A DNA stretch of 64,000 bases from the NCBI RefSeq assembly GCF_006345805.1, contig NC_043016.1, positions 11,904,001 through 11,968,000 of the forward strand, in the 5' to 3' direction. The translations under genes and the position numbers were made by a program. Positions 2,981 through 64,000 of this stretch are shown one piece after another; the stretch's first letter is position 1; each line of letters begins with the position of its first letter. The notes under the pieces were generated by a model. The model had not been told where the DNA came from. It saw only the letters and a program-made list of their open reading frames with translations, and made no database searches. The stretch comes from Octopus sinensis. Lineage: Eukaryota.

Positions 2981-3815
2981 TCTTTTACTTGTTTCAGTCA
3001 TTATACTGTGGGGCACCACCTTGAAGGGTTTTAATTGAACAAATCAACCCCAGTATATCTTTTATCTTTTACTTGTTTCAGTCATTGGACTGTGGCCATG
3101 CTGGGGCACCACCTTGAAGGGTTTTAGTTGAACAAATCAATCCCAGTATATCTTTTATCTTTTACTTGTTTCAGTCATTGGACTGTGGCCATGCTGGGGC
3201 ACCACCTTGAAGGGTTTTAGTTGAACAAATCAATCCCAGTATATCTTTTATCTTTTACTTGTTTCAGTCATTGGACTGTGGCCATGCTGGGGCACCACCT
3301 TGAAGGGTTTTAGTTGAACAAATCAATCCCAGTATATCTATTATCTTTTACTTGTTTCAGTCATTGGACTGTGGCCATGCTGGGGCACCACCTTCAAGGG
3401 TTTTAGTTGAACAAATAAATCCCAGTATATCTTTTATCTTTTACTTGTTTCAGTCATTGGACTGTGGCCATGCTGGAGCACCATCTTCAAGGGTTTTAGT
3501 TGAGTTGAGTGAATTGATCCCAAGAATTTTCTTTTAAGCCTGGCACTTATTCTTTTGGTCTCTTTTGCCAAACCACTAAGTTATGGGGACATAAACATAC
3601 CAACACTGACTATCAAGCAGTGGTGGGGAACAGACAGACACACACACATATGTATACCACAGGTCTCTTTCAGTTTCCGTCTACCAAACCCATTCACAAG
3701 GCTTTGGTCAACCCAAGGCTATAGTAATAGAAGAAACTTACCCAAGGTGCCACACAGTAGGACTGAACCTGGAACCATGTGATTGGGAAGCAAGCTTCTT
3801 AACACACAGTCATGC
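2981..3815 (-). mobile_element. tRNA-derived CORE-like SINE (family A) with its 3' end amplified into about 6 tandem 93-bp units
   Basis: units start at 2981, 3065, 3158, 3251, 3344 and 3437; SINE body and head continue to about 3815. Confidence 0.85.
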
Positions 3816-11197: not shown

Positions 11198-11302
11198 TAT
11201 ACTAAATATATAAAAAACGAAGAACAAACACAAGAAAAAAATAATGTGATAACGTGGTACATGCAAAGTATTAGCAGATGCTCAATGAAGGAAAGAAAAG
11301 TA

Positions 11303-11338
11303 GCTTTACATTTCGAGCAAAGCTCTTCATCAGAAACA
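11303..11338 (-). ncRNA. Minimal type I hammerhead ribozyme motif in a short element (about 11210-11400)
   Basis: TTT CTGATGA A GAGC TTT GCTC GAAA TG TA AAG; homologous copy at 34788-34823. Confidence 0.65.
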
Positions 11339-11399
11339 GGAGACGGGGGGGGGGGGGGAAGTCCAAAAGGAAAGGAGGACAGAGGAAAAAAAATCACGA

Positions 11400-17632: not shown

Positions 17633-19067
17633 CATCATCATTGTTGTCGTTGTCATCATCGTCATTATCATCATTTAACGTCCATTGTCCATGCTGGCAT
17701 GGGTTGGATGGTTTGACCAGGGCTGGCAAGCTGGAGAGCTGCACCAGACTCCAGTCTGCTGTGGCATGGTTTCTATGGCTGGATGCTCTTCATAACACCA
17801 ACCAATTTACAGAGTATACTGGGTGCTTTTATGTGGCACTGCACAGGTGCTTTTATGTGGCACTGCCATGAGTGCTTTTCACCACCAGAGGAACTGGTCT
17901 TAGCACTTTTGCTACAGAGTATTGGTCTTCTTGAGTACAGCAAGGTACCAGGCATCTTGGCCATTTGTCATCTCACCCGAGAGGTTCAAAGTCCTGAGGT
18001 CAATCTTCAGTACTTTGTTCCATATCTTCCTGGGTCTTCCACTTCCACCTGTTTTATTCCCTTTAAGAGATTGATACTTCTTTATGGAACTGTTGGCATC
18101 CATCTGCATTTTATGACCAAAACAGTGCTGTTGTCTCTCATGCACACAGCAACTAATTCCTCTTATGCCTAACTTCTCTCTCAAAACACTAATTCTCTGT
18201 CAAACATGTACACTTACATTACACATCCAGCAGAGCATACTAGCCTCATTCCTTTCTAACCTTCGCATGTCCTCTGTATTCAGGGCCCACGTCTCCCTAA
18301 CCATGTAGAATTGCTGTCTGTATACATGCATCATGCAACCTTCTTTTCACTCAGAGAGAGAAACCGTTCATTGCCAACAGAGGTAAAAGCTCTCTGAATT
18401 TCCTCCATCCTATTCTTATTCTAGCTATCACACTCTCCATGCAGAAGTTATCTGCTACCTCTAATGAGTCACCAGGACTTTTGAGAGAATCAATTTCTTG
18501 AGTCTCTAAAGTTTTTATGGATCCTCTGTATCTTCCACATACAAAAACTATCTTCTCTGATAACCTTCTTATTAATCCACTGCATCTCTTGTGTGTCCAT
18601 AGTTTACACTGGGTATACCATATGGAGTTCCTGCCTACACCATTCCTACAAATCGAATAGGGCCACCTGCCTGAAGCAAGTAAGGTCCTATCAGTTTTCT
18701 TGCTTTTTAGGATCTTAGTGTTTGCTAAGTTAACCTTAAGGCCCTTAGATTCCAGGTTCTGCTTCCACACTTGGAATTTCTCTTCTAACTCTGATATAGA
18801 ATCTACTATAAGGGCAAGATGATCAGCATGTAGTAGATCCCAGGGTCTGCCAGTCTTGAATTCCTTTGTTATGGCCCGAAGGACAATGATGAAAAGGAAG
18901 GGAATAAGGACCAAGCCTTGATGAACCGCTACCTGTACATCAAATTCTTTGCTGTGCTTGTGGTTTAGTCTCACCTTACTGACAGCATCTTTGTACATCT
19001 TTATGGCCTGTACAACTTTCACCAGCTGCTCATCTATCCCTAGCTTCCTCAGAGCCCACCATATCAC
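17633..19067 (-). mobile_element. 5'-truncated RTE LINE (RT, Cys-rich insert, thumb, 3' tail)
   Basis: ORF 18351-19067 VHQG..LFIIVL..LLHADHLALI; GRPRKIW at 17912-18184; (GAT)n tail. Confidence 0.9.
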
Positions 19068-19452
19068 ACAGCGAGGCAGCTGATAAGATATATTTCTTTG
19101 AATTAATAGTCATATCACTCAGTCGATTCAATAAATCTTCATTGTCAGGTTCAATTCCTCTTGATAGTTGTATCCAAACATATGTCTTCCTGAAAGAATA
19201 TTTGTCTTTCCTGTAGTATATTGAAAGATGGCATTTGCAGATTTTTATGCCAAAAATGTTTGTATTCATCTCAACAAACCAACCAAGGTGTTAACAACTA
19301 CTTGATTTTGGTGGAATGCAGCTCAAAGACTTAATTTTGCTGAGAAGAATTAAAGTTCAAGTTTGTGAGAGAAAGACAGGTTCAAAATTAGTGGTTTACT
19401 AAAAGTTCAACCAACTCTTGTAATTAATGCCTATCCAGTAGTCACCAGGTTT

Positions 19453-24044: not shown

Positions 24045-24932
24045 CACATGCATACATACATGCATACATACATACATACATACATACATGCATACATACA
24101 TACATACATGCATACATACATACACATACATGCATGCATACATACATGCATGCATACATGCATACATACATGCATACATACATACATGCATGCATGCATA
24201 CATACATGCATGCATACATACATGCATACATACATACATGCATGCATACATACATGCATACATACATGCATACATACATACATATACATGCATGCATACA
24301 TGCATGCATGCATGCATACATACATACATACATACATGCATGCATACATACATGCATACATACATGCATGCATGCATACATACATACATGCATGCATACA
24401 TACATACATACATACATGCATACATGCATACATACAATCATGCATACATACATACATGCATACATACATACATACATGCATACATGCATACATACATACA
24501 TGCATACATACATACATGCATGCATACATACATACATACATACATGCATACATGCATACATACAATCATGCATACATACATACATGCATACATACATACA
24601 TACATGCATACATGCATACATACATACATGCATACATACATACATGCATGCATACATACATACATACATACATGCATACATGCATACATACATACATATA
24701 CATGCATGCATACATGCATGCATGCATGCATACATACATACATACATACATACATGCATACATACATACATACAATCATGCATACATACATACATGCATA
24801 CATACATACATACATGCATACATACATGCAGGCATACATGCATGTATGTATGTATGTATGTATGCATGTATGTATGTATATGTATGCATGTATGTATGTA
24901 TGCATGTATGTATATGTATGCATGTATGTATG
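23873..24932. repeat. (CATA/CATG)n tetranucleotide array, switching to (TATG)n near 24835
   Basis: direct reading. Confidence 0.95.
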
Positions 24933-24957
24933 CAGTCAGAGAGACAGACAGACAGAC

Positions 24958-25268
24958 ACGCATCTTCATCCATTCTCGCCACATGACCATACCAGCGCAG
25001 TCGTCTCTCTTGCACACCACAACTGATGCTTCTTAGGTCCAGCTTTTCTCTCAAGGTACTTACACTCTGTCGAGTATGAACACTGACATTACACATCCAT
25101 CGGAGCATACTGGCTTCATTTCTTGCGAGCTTACGCATATCCTCAGCAGTTACAGCCCATGTTTCACTACCATGTAGCATGGCTGTTCGTACACATGCGT
25201 CATACAGTCTGCCTTTTACTCTGAGCGAGAGGCCTTTTGTCCCTAGCAGAGGTAAGAGCTCTCTGAAC
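24958..25268 (-). mobile_element. RTE ORF2 thumb fragment
   Basis: MLHGSETW..MLRWMC..RRLRWYGHVARM. Confidence 0.9.
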
Positions 25269-25519
25269 TTTGCCCAGGCTGTTCTTACTGACAGTAAGAA
25301 CAGTATCGCCTTACTATCACATGTGGTGGTGGTATGTGAAAAACAACATTCGAGTGTGGTTGTTGCCCGTGCCGCTAGACTGACTCCTGTGAGGGTGCAT
25401 CATCATCATCGTTTAACGTCCGTTCTCCATGCATGTAAAAAAAAACTCTTGAGCGAAGTCATTGCCAGTACCGCATGACTGGCCCTCATGCCGGTTGGAT
25501 ATAAAAGCACCCACTACAC

Positions 25520-34557: not shown

Positions 34558-34787
34558 ATGTATGCATGCATGCATATATGCATGCATGCATGTATGTATG
34601 TATGTATGTATGTATGTATGTATGTATGTATGTATGTATGTATGTATGTGTGTATGTATGTATGTATGAAATGTATGTATGTATGTATAGTTAATCCAAA
34701 CATGAACAATGAGAAAACACAACAACATGAGGATGTGGAACAAGTATAGTGTTGTTGGACGCTCAGGAAAGGAAAGAAAGAAGGAGG

Positions 34788-34823
34788 ATTTAATGTTTCG
34801 AGCAGAGCTCTTCGTCAGAAACA
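34788..34823 (-). ncRNA. Minimal type I hammerhead motif in a short element (about 34690-34905)
   Basis: TTT CTGACGA A GAGC TCT GCTC GAAA CA TT AAA. Confidence 0.65.
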
Positions 34824-35081
34824 TAGAAAAAGGAAAGATCCAAGGAAGGGAAGACAGAGGAAGAAAATCACCAACGATACACACGCAGTCACATATTGAA
34901 AATGATGTATGCATGCATGTATGTATGTATATGTACAGATTTGTATGTTTTGTTTTATGTATGTATTCTCATGCATACAGTTGCATATCTAGACATGCTT
35001 ATATGTATGTATATATTGTCTTTTCCTCAGGTTAAGCTTTTCAACTGTCCTGTGAATTCTCTTTGAAGAAACTTTTAGTGA

Positions 35082-37822: not shown

Positions 37823-39398
37823 ATAAAAGATATACAGGGATTGATTTGTTCAACTAAAACCCTTCAAGGTGGTGCCCCAGCATGGCCATAGTCCAATGAC
37901 TGAAACAAGTAAAAGATAAAAGATATACAGGGATTGATTTGTTCAACTAAAACCCTTCAAGATGGTGCTCCATCCAGCATGGCCACAGTCCAATGACTGA
38001 AACAATAAAGATAAAAGATATACAGGGATTGATTTGTTCAAGTAAAACCCTTCAAGTGGTGCCCCAGCATGGCCACAGTCCAATGACTGAAACAAGTAAA
38101 AGATAAAAGATATACAGGGATTGATTTGTTCAATTAAAACCCTTCAAGGTGGTGCCCCAGCATGGCCACAGTCCAATGACTGAAACAAGTAAAAGATAAA
38201 AGATATACAGGGATGATTTGTTCAAGTAAACCCCTCAGATGGTGGTCCCAGCATGGCCACTCCAATGACTGAAACAAGTAAAAGATAAAAGATATACAGG
38301 ATTGATTTGTTCAACTAAAACCCTTCAAGGTGGTGCTCCCATGGCCACAGTCCAATGACTGAAACAGTAAAAGATAAAAGATATACAGGGATTGATTTGT
38401 TCAAGTAACCCTTCAAGATGGTGCTCCAGCATGGCCACAGTCCAATGACTGAAACAAGTAAAAGATAAGTGATATACTGTGATTGATTTGTTCAACTAAA
38501 ACCCTTCAAGTGGTGCCCCGCAGCATGGCCACAGTCCAATGACTGAAACAAGTAAAGATAAAAATATACTGGATTGATTTGTTCAACTAAAACCCTTCAA
38601 GGTGCTGCCCCAGCATGGCCACAGTCCAATGACTGAAACAAGAAAAAGATAAAAGATATACTGGGATTGATTTGTTCATCTAAGAACCTTCAAGGTGTTG
38701 CTCCAGCATGGCCACAGTCCAATGACTGAAACAAGTAAACGATAAAAGATATACTGGAATTGATTTGTTCAACTAAAACCCTTCAAGGTGGTGCCCCAGC
38801 ATGGCCACATTCCAATGACGAAAACAAGAAAAAGATAAAAGATATACTGGGATTGATTTGTTCATCTAAGAACCTTCAAGTGTTGCTCCAGCATGGCCAC
38901 ATCCCAATGACTGAAACAAGTAAAAGATAAAAGATATACTGGAATTGATTTGTTCATCTAAGAACCTCAAGGTGTTGCTCCAGCATGGCCACAGTCAATG
39001 ACTGAAACAAGTAAAAGATAAAAGATATACTGGAATTGATTTGTTCATCTAAGAACCTTCAAGGTGGTGCCCCAGCATGGCCACATTCCAATGACTGAAA
39101 CAAGTAAAAGATAAAAGATATACTGGGATTGATTTGTTCATCTAAGAACCTTCAAGGTGTTGCTCCAGCATGGCCACAGTCCAATGACTGAAACAAGTAA
39201 AAGATAAAAGATATACTGGGATTGATTTGTTCATCTAAGAACCTTCAAGGTGTTGCTCCAGCATGGCCACAGTCCAATGACTGAAACAAGTAAAATAAAG
39301 AAGATACTTGGAATTGATTTGTTCATCTAAAACCCTTCAAGGTGGTGCCCCAGCATGGCCACATTCCAATGACTGAAACAAGTAAAAGATAAAAGATA
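37822..39398 (+). repeat. Tandem array of 17 units of about 93 bp derived from the family A SINE 3' end
   Basis: unit gggattgatttgttcaactaaaacccttcaaggtggtgccccagcatggccacagtccaatgactgaaacaagtaaaagataaaagatatac(a/t); 17 aatgac markers counted. Confidence 0.95.
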
Positions 39399-39440
39399 TT
39401 AACATTGGGCGATATTCTTGAGAGTATTTGGAATCTTACC

Positions 39441-41562: not shown

Positions 41563-42160
41563 TAATTACTATTTTGTCTAATATGAAAGACTCTTGGATA
41601 GTTCTTAATTTCTGGTTGTTCTTTACTTGAAAGCAGGCAATAACAAATCACCAAAGGTTTCGAGTAGTGCCTTCTCCTCTGACTCAAAGAGACAATACTC
41701 TCCTTAGAATGCAAGCTGTACCCAAGAATACCATCTTCTGGATCACCTTGAGCCTGACAGCAGCTCCAATATTCTTAATATGTTTTTCAAAGCCCTTGGA
41801 AACTACTTCTAATGCTCCAATTACTTTGGGTATCACCATAACCTTCATATCTCATCCTGCAGTAGCTGGTATTTCACAATCTTTTCTGTTTCCTTACATT
41901 TCACCCTCAAATCACCTGGTATTGCAACATCTATTATCTTTGCTTCTTTTTCATCTTTATGGATGAGCATGATATCTGGTCGTCTCACCTCTATGACTTG
42001 GTCGCACTGCATGTTAAAATCCCAGAGTATTCTGTAATGTTCGTTTTCCATTATTCCCTCTGGCTTGTATTCATACCATTGTTCGGCTTTCTTGTTTGCT
42101 TTATTACACAACAGTCTCTGGACATATCTGGCCATATTGTCATGTCTCCTTTTGTATTTG
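41563..42160 (-). mobile_element. R4/Dong-type RLE retrotransposon 3' fragment between (TAA)n tracts
   Basis: ILWDFNMQCDQVIEVRRPDIMLI..IIDVAIPGD..KETEKIVKYQ (restriction-like endonuclease motif). Confidence 0.85.
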
Positions 42161-42218
<58 letters not shown>

Positions 42219-44779: not shown

Positions 44780-47700
44780 TGTGTGGCGTGCGTGCTTGCG
44801 CGTGTGTATGTGAGAGAGAAAGAGGGTGAGAAAGAGGGATAGAGTGAGTGAAGTGAAAATATCTTCGCAGAAAACAGCTTCAGGAGTTGTGAAGAAAGAA
44901 TTTGTACGTAGTCTATTTCTGAGAACTATTCTATTGGACCTCTGTCTAATCACGTCTTTTAAGGTATACACACATACATAGAGAATGTGAGGTCATAGTA
45001 GAAAATTTTTACGATAGTTGATTTATGGAAAAGATTATGTGAAATCTGTGAATGAAAATGAAGTTCAGATGTCTACATGGTAGGTAGACGTGGTAGAAAT
45101 AGCAGCCAAAGGTAAAGTGGAGAAGTATGGGAGAAGTCATTGTTATACGCTTATAGAAAAAAATAGACACGTACTTTTTTAGAGAAGAAAATATAGGTGA
45201 GAGCTATTGTATTGTACATTTGAGTAATGAGAGAGCAGAAATTGAAAGAAGATATATGAAACGGACGTGCGTGTTTGTGTGTGTGTGTTTCTGGCTAATT
45301 TGGCAGGATTTTTGCAGTCAGCACGAGGTGATTTGTATTTATATCTCTGGAGGGGTGGGAAAGCGGATCTTTTGAAGTCATGAAGTGATTGATCTCCCCC
45401 GTCCTTGTCAAGCTATGTGAGTGTGAGGGAGGAAGAGAGAGAGAGAGAGAGAGAGAGCGTGTGTGTGTGTGTGTATGTGTGTGTGTGTGTATGTGTGTGT
45501 GTGTGTGTTTGATGGGGTGTGCAATATGGGCGAGAGAGTTAACTAAAATTTTGTTATTCACTTGTTACAGTGAGAGAAAATGTGAGTGAGTAACAGAGAA
45601 AAGGAGAGGGGTTATGTATGTTGGCGGGGGGATTCCATAAGAAAAGTTTGCCAGAGAGAGAGAGGGGACTGGGATAGAAAGAGCGACAGAGAGACAGCGA
45701 ATACGGAGAGGGAAAGGGAGTGAGTAGAAACTGTGAAAAGCCGTTATAGATATAAAGGGGAGGGAAGGGGGGAAAGAGAGAGATGGAAGAAGAAAGGGTT
45801 ATAACCATTAGAGAGGAACAACAAACACTTGTCCATTTTCACTCTCTTTGCCATAGCAACCACATCTTTATAGCTTGCAAATTTTAACCATCGCAGGTCA
45901 AACACGCATTTAGTATCCCTGCCAATTTTCAGCTCGATCCTAGCACGTCTAGTGCCATTGAACCCTTACCAAAGCCAAAGTGTCAAGTTTTTTTCCTCTT
46001 TTATATAAGTAGATTATGATTGCAAGGAATGCTCATGTCAATCAATAAACAGATTTGATTGTTTTGGTTTTTCACAACAATATCTGGTTTATTAGCTTTG
46101 ACGGTCTGCTCTGTATGTACTGCAAAGTCCCAAAGAATCAATGCATTTTCTCCCTCAGTTGCAGCCTCAGGGTGGTTATTGTACTATTTGTCAGCAGTTT
46201 TGATTTTATAATGTGGACATATTAACCAGTGTAGATATTGGCCAACTCTATAGGTGCTAAAGTTCTACACCCAGAGATAAGGTGATCCACTGTTTCAATC
46301 TCAATGTTGCAGTATCAGCACTTTGGGTATACTCCATTTTTCATCAAATTGGTTTGGTAGTTATGGATCAATAAGCTCTGATCTTGAGCAGTTAAGATAA
46401 AGCCTTCACTCTCTGCCTTTAACCATGAGCTTTGTAGCAACTGATGGGTGTGCTTCTGGTCTGCATCAACTTGTTTGCTACAGGACACATAGCAGAGGTT
46501 TTTATTCCCACCTATCAGCCAATTGTTCAAATGCTTTTTCCTTTGTCATTAATTTTACTTTCTTTGCAACAACAGTTGCTGCACTTCCATCATTCTGTTC
46601 AACTTGGATAATTTGCATGAACTCACCAGTAAATTTTTTGCTCTCCTTCTAGACAGAATGAAGCTTCTTACATATCTCATGGTTTTTGATGAATTTTAGC
46701 ATCCAGTCATTAGATGTTTCAAGACATTTGTCCAGCCCAATTGTTGTGGTTTTGTGAGAGATTTCAAATTGGACCAAACCTCGACCTCCATGGGCTCTGG
46801 GAAGATAAAGACAATCTTTGTCTGCTTTTGGGAAGTGTAAGTCAACAACTGACAAATTTTCCTGTCAATTTTCTTTGTTTTGTTGATATTCCAGTTCAAC
46901 ACATTAGAACTATAAGTAACAACTGGAACTGCCAGGGAATTTATGGCTAGCACCTTGTTACGTGCATTTAGTTCAGATTTCAGGGCTGCTTGAACTCTCC
47001 TGTAACATTCCTTCCTGATCTTCTCTTTCATGCTTGCATGCTAAATGCCAGAACCTTCATTTATTCCTAGGTATTTGTAGGTTTGTTCCTGCTCAAGTTC
47101 TCTTATAACTGTATCAATATCTAACACCACTGAATGTCAGGTCTTCAATTTCCTTTTCTGGAAAGTGGCCTTGGCACATTTATCAAGACTAAACTTCAAC
47201 CCGATGTCATTACTGAATGCTTTCACAGTAAGTAATAGGCCTTCAAGCTCATTATCGTCTTTGCCATAGATTTTTCAGTTATCCATATGAAATTTTCTTG
47301 TCAATTTTATACCCATACCCTGTTCTTTTAAATGCATTCTAATGAGTATTAGGGCTATGCAAAAGCTTAGATGTGAAAGTGTGTCACCCTGGCAAAGGTT
47401 TCTGTTGATATTGATATTATTTTAAGTTAGTACTCCATTACATTTGAATAAATGGAGATTTGTATTCCACACTGACATGTTGTGCTTCAGGAAGTTTGAA
47501 ATTACAGGAGAAATTTTGAAGATATCCAGCAATTCTAAGGTCCATGAATATGGTATGCCGTCAAAGATTTTTTTATAATCAATCCATGTGGTATTGACAT
47601 CTCTGAATTTGTTAAGACAGTTCTCAAGGATCATGTGATTGATATTAGGAGTTGATCTTTGCATCCATATGAGTCACATTGGCACATTTTTTGTTCAGTG

Positions 47701-51800: not shown

Positions 51801-51833
<33 letters not shown>

Positions 51834-52478
51834 GAGGAAAGAGAGGAGAGGGGAGAGAGAGAAAAAAGAGAGGAGTGGGTGAGGAGTAGAAGAGTGTGAG
51901 TGGAGAGAGAAAGAGAGAGACATTGAGAGAGCGAAGAGAGAGATAGAGAGAAAGAGAAAGAAGAGAGAGAGAGAAAGAAAGAAGAGAGAAGTGTGTGAGA
52001 GAGAGAGAGTGTGAGAGAGAGAGAGTGAGAGAGCGAAGAGAAAGGAGTAGATTCGAAAGAGAGAGAGAAGAGAGAAAGAAAGAAAGAGAGAGAGTGTGTG
52101 AGAGAGAGAATGAGAGAGAGAGAGGGAGAGAGAGAGAGAAAGAGAGAGAGAGTGAGTGAGTGAGAGAGAGTGTGAGAGAGAGAGAAAGAGAGAGACAGTG
52201 AGAGAGCGAAAGAGAGAGATAGAGAGAAAGAGAAAGAAAGAGAGAGAGAAAGAAAGAGAGAGAGTGTGTGAGAGAGAGAGTGTGAGAGAGAGAGTGTGAG
52301 AAAGAGAGAAAGAGAGAGAGAGTGTGAGAGAGAGAGAAAGAGAGAGACAGTGAGAGACCGAAAGAGAGAGATAGAGAGAAAGAGAGAGAAAGAAAGAAAG
52401 AGAGAGAGTGTGAGAGAGAGAGAGAGAGAGTGTGAGAGAGAGAATGAGAGAGAGAGAGAGAGAAAGAGAGAGAAAAGC
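51800..52478. repeat. Complex (AG)n polypurine tract
   Basis: direct reading. Confidence 0.95.
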
Positions 52479-52984
52479 AGACAGAACAATATGGACAAAT
52501 GCTACCACTGACGTGCCTCTGCACCCTTTCCTCTTCATAACTTTTCTACTGTGATCTGGTAGTCTTGGAGGTGGCCATGGCAGTTGTCCCCAGCTAGCAA
52601 TGTAAGCAAGAATGCTTATATGCACCAAAAGCTGTATGAGAGGTTCATTCATGGTAACCATTGCTTGCATTCCATATTGCAACACAATATCCACTTTTAA
52701 GTGGTGATAAATATTATCTTTTGATATTATAACTGCTTCTGTTGTTAATAATTATTTTTTGATAAGCCTACTAGCTATTTGTGACACCGGTACCTGAGAT
52801 TCTATATATAGATACTGAAATTCTATATATGTCATTTCTGGACATATCATTGTTGTTTCCAGCGGTCAAGCACCTACCACTGACAAAGCCAAGGAAGACC
52901 TAAATCACATGATCTGGTAGTCTTGGTGGTGGCAGTGGCAGTTGAGGTGTCTTTCTGCTAGCGATGTAAACAAGAGTGCTTATA

Positions 52985-53201
52985 AAGGGAAAGTTTACGA
53001 AAATAAACAAAAGACGAAGGCAGGTGGAGTACAAACAAACAAATGTATTAGTATAGCACTCAGGATAGAAAAAGTTTTTACGTTTCGAGCCTACGCCTTC
53101 GACAGAAAGATACACAGAAAAAAACAAGGGAGAAAAAAAAAGGAGAGAAAAATGCATGTAGGAGCTAACGATCTATCATGGCGTCCTGACTTCAGACAGA
53201 C
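52985..53201 (-). mobile_element. 217-bp hammerhead-bearing element with 10-bp TSD
   Basis: TSD agtgcttata at 52975-52984 and 53202-53211; motif TTT CTGTCGA AGGC GTAG GCTC GAAA CG TA AAA at about 53076-53108. Confidence 0.75.
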
Positions 53202-53867
53202 AGTGCTTATATACACTGAAAGCCAATACAAGAGGTTCTCTCATGGCAACTATCACAGTATCCTATGTTCTAACACAACATCCACCTTTTAATGGTATTA
53301 ATACTGATTCTGTCACTATGAATTAATTTTTACTATTCCGTCTTTTAACCTGTGTATTATACACATGTACTATGCCTTTGTCATTGTTGTCTTCTTTTAT
53401 TCGACTTGTGGCTGCTTTCTTCCTTCCCTCTTTCACCATTTTCCAAAGTGTTGTAGTGCATCTGAGCACTGTATATAAAGAAAGCTTGTTATTAAGTGAC
53501 GAGCTGGCAGAACCATTAGCATATATTGAGTGACATGCTTAGCAGCATTATTTCTTTTGGCTCTTTATTTTCTAAGTTCAAATGCTGCTGAGGTCAACTT
53601 TGTGTTTTTATCCTTATGGGGTCGATAACATAAAATGCCAGTCAAATATTGCCAGTGGGGAGGAGGGGTGTCAATGTAATCGACTTCCCTTCTCCCTCAA
53701 AATATTGCTGACCTTATGCCAAAATTAGAAAAAAATTATCATCATTATCATCATGACTAGTTAGATAAATAGATAGATATGCAATAATATTATTTCATTT
53801 CTGCCCACCACACATCCACTCACCAGGCTTTGGTTAGCTCTGGGCTATATATATAATATTATATTAT

Positions 53868-53910
<43 letters not shown>

Positions 53911-54049
53911 ATTCAGTTAGAGATTATGTTAGCCTCATGAAGGGATGGTGTCATCCCAGGAAATACTGGTTCAATACCAAATATTTTGGAGGCAATAGAT
54001 TTCCTTAAAATAATAGGCTTGCATATAATCCGTAGTTTATATTCATGCA

Positions 54050-54585
54050 AAGGAAAAAAAAAAAAAGAGAAGAAAACGGAAATGTTGAAGTTAATAAGAG
54101 TTTATTATCAGCAACAAAGTGATCATTATCCCTTACATCTCTTTCAATTATACTCAGTGAAATTAATTAAATATTAAATTCATATTTCTGAGCATAATCA
54201 CTTTAGACGGAAAAAATATATATCCTTAGATGTTATGTATGTTTGTTACTAGATTCATTGTAGCAGACTGAATGATACTGTTCATGGTTTGTATTTATAT
54301 GTTTTTTGGGTGAGGGGTTTGCAGGTTGGTTGGAGGGAAGATAGAATAGGTAAATAGAGTAATAAATTAGAGTAATAAAAGAATGAATAAATAGAGATTA
54401 TAGAGTAAATTATAATATAAATAAAGTACAATATAATCTCTGAAGAGATTATGATCAGAAATATGAATTTAATATTCATTAAACTTCACTAAGCTTAATT
54501 GAAACAGCTGTAAGGGATAATGATCGATTTGTTGCTGATAATAAACTCTTATTAACTTCAAAATCTCGATTTTCTTCTTTTTCCT
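54050..54585. mobile_element. Head-to-head inverted element (about 150-bp arms) with hammerhead motif
   Basis: about 54050-54207 is the reverse complement of about 54438-54585. Confidence 0.75.
54437..54516 (+). ncRNA. Type I hammerhead-like motif with extended stem II
   Basis: TCT CTGAAGA GATT-(46 nt)-AATT GAAA CAGCTG TA AGG. Confidence 0.55.
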
Positions 54586-54618
54586 ATGTATGTATGTATG
54601 TATGTGTGTGTGTGTGTG

Positions 54619-54658
<40 letters not shown>

Positions 54659-54984
54659 TGCGTGCATGCGTGAGTGCATGCATGAACGGATGGATATTGT
54701 TCCATGATGATAAGATCAACAAAAAAAAGTACTCCATCTGGTGAGAGATGAATACAATGTTTTTATGGGCTACTATTAGTTTCATGTGATGAGAGCATCA
54801 AAGTACCTGAAGATTGAACTGAGATACCAGATGTGTTAAAAAATACTGTCTGGTATGCTCTCATCGAATGAAACAAAAAATAGCACATAAAAACATGTAT
54901 TGAGTTTATTAAATTATATATATATAATGATAGATCGTTAGCCACTACACACATTCTTTTTCTCTCCTTGTTTTTTCTGTGTCC

Positions 54985-55020
54985 CTTTCTGTAGAAGAGC
55001 GTAGGCTCGAAACGTAAAAG
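54985..55020 (+). ncRNA. Minimal type I hammerhead-like motif, A6U core, in element about 54927-55111
   Basis: CTTT CTGTAGA A GAGC GTAG GCTC GAAA CG TA AAAG. Confidence 0.65.
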
Positions 55021-55302
55021 ACTTTTTCTATTCCTGAGCGTTATACTAATACATCTGTTTGTTTTGTACACCAACTGTCTTCGTCTTTTGTTTATTTTCG
55101 TAAACTTTCCCTATATATATATATATATATAGTAGGAGACATTTTCCCAAGGTTCCGCAAAATGGGACTGAACACAAGGCCACATGCTTGAGAAGCAAGC
55201 TGTTTAACCCCACAGCTATGTCTATGGTGAAATAGGGAGAATTATGCCCGCTTTGATCAGTTCTATATAGAAGAAAATCACAATTCATAATGAACTACAT
55301 TT

Positions 55303-63915: not shown

Positions 63916-64000
63916 CTACCAGCTCACTACTGGCATAATAATAATAATACTGTCTGTCTGAGGTCCTTGTTGTGACTTGAAAAACAGTACAAACCCCTGG

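Follow-up and report, generated by a model that had tools for sequence, protein, structure and literature searches.

Our sequence analysis implies that a short mobile element in octopus DNA carries a hammerhead motif with U instead of A at core position 6, and that this U6 very likely goes back to a shared source and did not arise as two private mutations. The element is a 217-bp insert and likely represents the end of a Penelope-like retrotransposon (PLE) that was truncated on its 5' side, a solo pLTR. It was compared with a sister copy and with two more distant relatives in the window, by which we mean the whole 64-kb stretch of Octopus sinensis DNA that was analysed (Table 1). The reading that explains the data best, and which we hold with somewhat more belief than doubt, is that an impaired ribozyme is carried by a Penelope-like lineage that is still mobile. 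Hammerhead positions are numbered by the standard scheme as in the cited literature.

Table 1. Coordinates of the element copies, their hammerhead motifs, the insertion site and the relatives with A6; positions are those of the window.
Feature	Position	Strand	Remarks
Insert, 217 bp, likely solo pLTR or 3' fragment of a Penelope-like element	52985..53201	-	missing in the paralogue; bounded by 10-bp repeats
Sister copy, 185 bp, within (TA)n	54927..55111	+	without the 22-nt 5' segment of the insert
22-nt 5' segment, insert only	53180..53201	-	further element sequence or filler
Motif of the insert	53076..53108	-	C3 53105, U6 53102, H17 53079; stem I 3 bp
Motif of the sister	54985..55020	+	C3 54989, U6 54992, H17 55016; stem I 4 bp
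Left copy of target site duplication (TSD)	52975..52984	+	joins the 3' end of the element; ends in TATA
Right copy of TSD	53202..53211	+	meets the element at its 5' end
Empty target site	52611..52620	+	9 of 10 bases as in the TSD; present once in copy A
Host duplication, copy A, element-free	52502..52713	+	
Host duplication, copy B, split by the element	52874..53303	+	
Distant relative, canonical A6	11215..11360	-	C3 11333; boundaries approximate
Distant relative, canonical A6	34690..34916	-	C3 34818; boundaries approximate

The insertion itself is well delimited. Exactly the same 10-bp sequence stands on both sides of the element and encloses the 217 bp, and this 10-mer has no further occurrence in the 64-kb window; when two window positions were drawn at random, they had a 10-mer in common in 126 of 2,000,000 draws. 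The preliminary description of this DNA had claimed an insert with flanking repeats that is found in the second of two duplicates only, and an empty site in the first; both claims were confirmed. The 3' junction lies at TATA in both the insert and the sister, and a TSD can be defined in one of these two copies, the sister being bordered by (TA)n on both sides. Taken together, this is a short TSD at a target which is AT-rich or consists of (TA)n. By themselves, the insertion with its TSD and the empty site are nothing new: they represent an ordinary kind of insertion, of which this is a clean example.

The duplicated host DNA gives a relative age for the element. The duplication had been described as ~230 bp long; it is real, and its reliable part amounts to about 160-170 bp (52552-52713 against 52910-53303, the insert not counted) and an island of 11 bp (52502-52512 / 52874-52884), with a poor alignment between the island and the main block. 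The left host flanks align with 60 matches and 9 mismatches (local score 75, the maximum of 1000 shuffles being 26) and the right host flanks with 77 matches and 23 mismatches (local score 61, maximum of 1000 shuffles 32). A search for a third copy of the duplicate in the 64-kb window found none, and the frames of the duplication that were tested gave no Pfam match. Upstream of the duplication lies a 670-bp (AG)n array (51801-52473). Between the host copies 32 of 169 aligned positions are different (~19%), and between the insert and its sister 14 of 181 (7.7%), so that the element most likely entered copy B after the duplication. It could be argued that the element is the older of the two and that recombination of the 10-bp repeats with each other removed it from copy A, as a precise loss from TSD to TSD would leave an identical empty site. 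However, the element copies are so much closer to each other than the host copies, and the two TSD copies are identical, that we regard such a loss as extremely improbable. Insertion after the duplication is most likely and fits the sequences better than a deletion from copy A. Thus, of the retro-mobility proposed in the preliminary description, the movement stands, being indicated by the TSD, the empty paralogous site, the younger age of the element and the 3' ends at TATA. No reverse transcriptase (RT) gene was found beside either copy, and the part of the proposal that concerns the RNA route is of another kind: we infer it from the Penelope-type anatomy of the element.

In the alignment of the two element copies 167 positions match and 14 do not, and there are 16 gap columns. 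Their 3' ends agree within 2 nt, both running into TATA, and their 5' ends differ by 22 nt. The two are in head-to-head orientation on opposite strands, with ~1.7 kb between them; this is the orientation reported as the commonest for inverted pLTRs, and the U6 copies seem to have been inserted separately. Neither position shows a tandem array, both copies being single dispersed units, and the missing tandem or partial-tandem arrangement, which is usual for active copies, is what would be expected of inactive truncated ones. Neither BLASTN nor an nhmmer profile built from the four hammerhead elements (the U6 pair and the two A6 relatives) found a fifth member in the window. The 22-nt segment at the 5' end of the insert may be the very end of the source open reading frame (ORF). 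No convincing second copy of this segment was found in the window, and a match to 17 nt of the 5' junction, located at 63949-63965, was rejected, as it showed no extension. In a slightly longer stretch of the insert's 5' part (53174-53201, minus strand) one frame meets two tandem stop codons where the sister begins. Exact-pattern scans of a prokaryotic genome collection gave 0 matches to the element, and word-based searches gave no match to proteins translating the repeat. Two phmmer matches of the translated repeat were both to unrelated repetitive proteins and were taken as chance. A bacterial promoter scan of the region, a type of scan that is not applicable to animal DNA, gave no match.

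The core of the motif reads C3 U4 G5 U6 N7 G8 A9 in both copies and is followed by an extra A and then by stem II. The extra base between positions 9 and 10.1, the G10.1-C11.1 pair closing stem II, the GAAA, the palindromic ACGU (the centre of helix III, which allows a dimer) and an A as H17 are found in 2/2 copies. Stem II is intact in the sister (4 bp, -4.7 kcal/mol), and a 1-nt deletion has left 3 bp and -1.9 kcal/mol in the insert. The preliminary description had put T at core position 6 of both copies, with stem II, GAAA and ACGT retained; the T was found in both, and so were the GAAA and the ACGU, while an intact stem II belongs only to the sister. The core of the minimal hammerhead ribozyme (min-HHR), CUGANGA, has A at position 6, and both copies have U. 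A6 could not be recovered by reading the core in another register, because the insert lacks an A at the place required and the register is set by the A6 relatives. Since this defining A6 is replaced, the motif is classed by its sequence as min-HHR-derived and not as a working hammerhead.

General searches and folding calculations gave the following picture. Rfam gave no hammerhead, with 0 gathering-score matches in the window, and none of the 7 weak matches listed for 52400-55300 is a hammerhead; with Rfam silent on these motifs, the hammerhead reading is drawn from their layout and from the A6 relatives. The folding energy of the U6 copies was no better than that of shuffles, with z = -0.22 and 0.08 for the motifs and z = -1.87 and 1.40 for the whole elements. 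On co-folding, the lowest-energy form was a hammerhead dimer in 0/4 motifs, the A6 ones included.

The A6 relatives were identified by a descriptor scan of the window with position 6 left free, which returned 6 candidates. Stem II and the layout are common to three of them: the sister and the elements with C3 at 11333 and 34818. The other three look like chance matches and were set aside, and the insert was missed by the scan due to its stem II deletion. The same layout in two canonical A6 relatives makes the numbering of U6 secure. With each of these relatives the sister shares 20 of 23 hammerhead positions and a lower proportion of the downstream ones, 61/90 and 57/89 (p = 0.054 and 0.027), which suggests that the motif was conserved while the lineages diverged; the downstream likeness is marginal (25 and 52 of 1000 shuffles). 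The identity of the A6 elements to the U6 pair is 47-60%, and judged by their sequences they are other families. Both U6 copies still have the CpG in the palindrome of helix III, which both A6 relatives have lost.

Several further observations concern these elements. Both A6 elements end at a TATA-rich microsatellite. A 15-nt direct repeat (34675-34689 / 34917-34931) flanks the element with C3 at 34818; it is a candidate TSD, but it lies inside a (TACA)n array. All four hammerhead elements have a TGAG-containing block ~12-25 nt downstream of H17 (e.g. 55032-55040), and in 3/4 copies this block repeats the 5' strand of stem II. It could compete for the 3' strand of stem II, or it could be a protein-binding site.

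The next point to be considered is where U6 came from. Two independent A-to-T changes at position 6 have a chance of only ~5e-5 to 2e-4, and therefore U6 should come from a shared source or from local copying. The preliminary description spoke of a family with a fixed non-canonical core; on the sequences at hand this fixation is a statement about n=2 copies that lie 1.7 kb apart, with A6 in two more distant relatives. The chance of such a close spacing is ~0.06, which means that the copies may not be independent and that a local origin is possible. U6 would then be one local mutation, passed on by copying or conversion of a neighbour or by one rare source, while most of the family has A6. Such an origin would agree with the presence of only two copies in 64 kb, inverted and close together, and with the A6 of 2/4 hammerhead elements in the window. 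It would also agree with reports that PLEs insert in or beside existing copies (PMC6765202) and that opposite-strand min-HHR pairs in proximity are known. However, the flanks of the two copies are unrelated, each copy ends exactly at the 3' boundary of the element, and a TSD of its own borders the insert within uninterrupted host DNA; for these reasons two insertions are favoured. The differences between insert and sister are spread along their length, and the A6 elements are other families. We thus consider a purely local mutation distinctly unlikely. The same TSD within continuous host DNA led us to reject a one-event origin in which the 1.7 kb between the inverted copies would have been captured. 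The preferred reading, a U6 inherited from a source shared by two separate insertions, is the one that we follow below.

With U6 in its core, the hammerhead is predicted to cleave little or not at all. In a natural A6C variant from phage Bcep176, kobs was below 0.1 per min, with activity still detectable (PMC3088659). One type III hammerhead was scanned completely for double mutants, and single and double mutants of its CUGA region were of low activity except for the C3/G8 swap (PMC9901934). These mutagenesis data come from other hammerhead types, and the portions of text on which we draw give the A6U value in no separate form; a functional U6 variant is nevertheless disfavoured by them. Against an impairment one can put that the other core positions, the stem II of the sister and the palindrome are intact. 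Within the core, insert and sister differ by a single substitution, which falls on the free position N7, as selection would give, although this is weak evidence (P = 0.35 and 0.077), and an untouched core is expected 35% of the time at 7.7% divergence. Canonical min-HHRs, too, are reported to cleave poorly in vitro and may need protein help (PMC4209133, PMC11167929).

It could therefore be that U6 is a selected, working variant of the core that is present in the whole family, the dimer cleaving itself slowly or with the aid of the element's protein. The intact rest of the core in both copies, with the one difference at N7, and the CpG of helix III that only the U6 copies have kept would speak for it. 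So would the natural core variants with residual activity (PMC3088659) and the anole PLE hammerhead, which is reported to cleave only with protein (PMC11167929). However, the CUGA-region mutants were of low activity and second-site rescue was absent in the one complete scan (PMC9901934), an intact core would be seen in about a third of such cases anyway, and the kept CpG may only mean a younger age. Moreover, the published representative min-HHRs all have A6 (56/56), even if they were largely found via a canonical-core descriptor. We find a working U6 core unlikely. Slightly less doubtful, but still a tentative proposal, is the idea that an octopus PLE family kept U6 through several source lineages together with all other core bases, helix II and the palindrome. 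If such a family-wide U6 were true, it would mean either a working U6 hammerhead, probably rescued by protein, or a fold kept for a non-catalytic job.

The assignment of the element to PLEs follows from its anatomy, as a PLE ORF was not found. The size of ~200 bp and the hammerhead motif fit a pLTR; a pLTR is defined by its place beside an ORF, and no ORF is seen here. The layout agrees with the consensus of metazoan PLE min-HHRs in its U-rich leader, the extra base after A9, G10.1-C11.1, GAAA and the palindromic helix III. A GIY-YIG domain was found in 0/9 scanned ORFs (out of 59 long ORFs in the window), and fragments of 200 bp are not expected to hold one. The lone RT match among the scanned ORFs is 34 kb distant from the U6 copies. 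PLEs of Adineta are described with pLTRs of ~200 bp, TSDs of 8-10 bp, solo pLTRs and an empty site (PMC3846280), and the PLE endonuclease is reported to favour AT-rich DNA (PMC11167929). In Octopus vulgaris PLEs are reported to make up 6.83% of the genome, with 190 families (PMC13282606).

The window contains other repeats as well. LINE-like ORF remnants, all on the minus strand, lie at 18351-19109, 24776-25399, 41845-42162 and 46696-47040. The first of them has a weak RVT_1 match (E = 3e-06), a LINE-like RT fragment in the second (25040-25399) gave 10 matches, among them two from Octopus bimaculoides at 74% and 87% identity, and no Pfam match was found in the last two. Arrays of a 93-bp unit occur in opposite orientations at 37823-39399 (17.1 copies) and 3009-3503 (5.3 copies), and elsewhere in the window there are many arrays of 63-69-bp units and tandem pairs of 184-248 bp.

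A mechanism which accounts for these copies can be proposed on the model of PLEs. The first step would be the transcription of a full-length source element that lies elsewhere in the genome and has U6 already. Its RT-endonuclease would nick TA-rich DNA at a TATA site, where target-primed reverse transcription would begin, the copying starting ~92-95 nt downstream of the hammerhead cleavage position (H17) and halting after ~200 nt, which would result in 5' truncation. A staggered second nick 10 bp away would produce the TSD. The insertion events would be separate for the insert and the sister, and each copy would decay after insertion, as the stem II deletion in the insert may exemplify. The source would keep spreading, since hammerhead cleavage is likely not needed for insertion; catalytic mutants of the hammerhead in the anole PLE Poseidon are reported to have left insertion in vitro unaffected (PMC11167929), and the Poseidon hammerhead is the one that cleaves only with protein. 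That the fold persists would be due either to a recent acquisition of U6 by the source lineage or to some non-catalytic function of the structure.

Instead of a PLE fragment, the element might be a short non-autonomous element, a retrozyme monomer or a SINE-like unit, that is moved in trans. An ORF is attached to 0/4 hammerhead elements as far as they were scanned, the unit is ~200 bp long, and retrozyme monomers are described as dispersed and argued to be pLTR-derived (bioRxiv 10.64898/2026.07.22.740005), all of which such an element would share. However, neither position has a tandem array, the motif is of the minimal PLE type and not the canonical type I of retrozymes, and the 3' ends agree while the 5' ends differ, as they do in truncated copies. 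A non-autonomous unit is thus very unlikely, and we keep to the truncated PLE.

To our knowledge hammerheads are nearly universal in canonical PLEs, yet their role is unsettled. A family amplified with U6 would be either a natural knock-out or a new working core and would bear on this role directly: if U6 cripples cleavage, the element would have spread without a working ribozyme. Such a family would also show that descriptor searches which require CUGA miss whole families. Our literature search turned up no description of min-HHRs in octopus or of a hammerhead with U6, and for an A6U hammerhead only a paper on the twister ribozyme surfaced; the largest PLE hammerhead survey and the O. vulgaris repeat library lay outside this search, so absence from print is not established by it.

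The known systems are compared here as far as the cited parts of their descriptions go. The metazoan PLE min-HHRs (PMC4209133) are the closest: like the octopus motifs, they have a U-rich leader, a short helix I, the extra base between 9 and 10.1, G10.1-C11.1, GAAA and a loopless palindromic helix III, and they occur as dispersed single copies from truncated elements. The core variant described among them is U3-A8 (Cervera and De la Pena 2014, PMC4209133). A6 is present in all 56 representatives listed there, which does not show that U6 is rare in genomes, as these were largely found via a descriptor based on the canonical core; the octopus copies differ in their U6 and in having no ORF link. 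Natural variants of the hammerhead core have been collected (A6C, U3-A8, U15.1-A16.1 and insertions; Perreault 2011, PMC3088659), and a change at position 6 with the core otherwise intact is found among them as it is here. The A6C of Bcep176 was assayed and had low but detectable activity (PMC3088659); the octopus variant has U instead of C, sits in an animal repeat and is shared by two insertions.

The solo pLTRs of endonuclease-containing (EN+) PLEs from Adineta vaga (PMC3846280) and of anole Poseidon (PMC11167929) resemble the insert in the ~200-bp unit, the 10-bp TSD, the empty site, the AT-rich target and the fixed 3' end downstream of the hammerhead. In contrast to them, the empty site in octopus is a paralogous duplicate and not an allele, and the insert is accompanied by no pLTR in tandem or in adjacent inverted position. 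The Naiad PLEs (Craig 2021, PMC8557442) share with our element the (TA)n targets, the occurrence in Octopus and mobility without a canonical hammerhead. They have an N-terminal GIY-YIG domain and a CxC linker, whereas here a near-complete min-HHR fold has been kept. An exact search of the Naiad, Chlamys and Hydra consensus files gave no match to the short motifs of the element; the one exception is an 11-mer, which lies inside an unrelated coding stretch. Non-LTR retrozymes (PMC7229834; bioRxiv 10.64898/2026.07.22.740005) are likewise short non-coding units with a type I hammerhead. Contrastingly, they are tandem repeats with complete type I hammerheads, and the octopus element has no array, a minimal motif and a variable 5' end.
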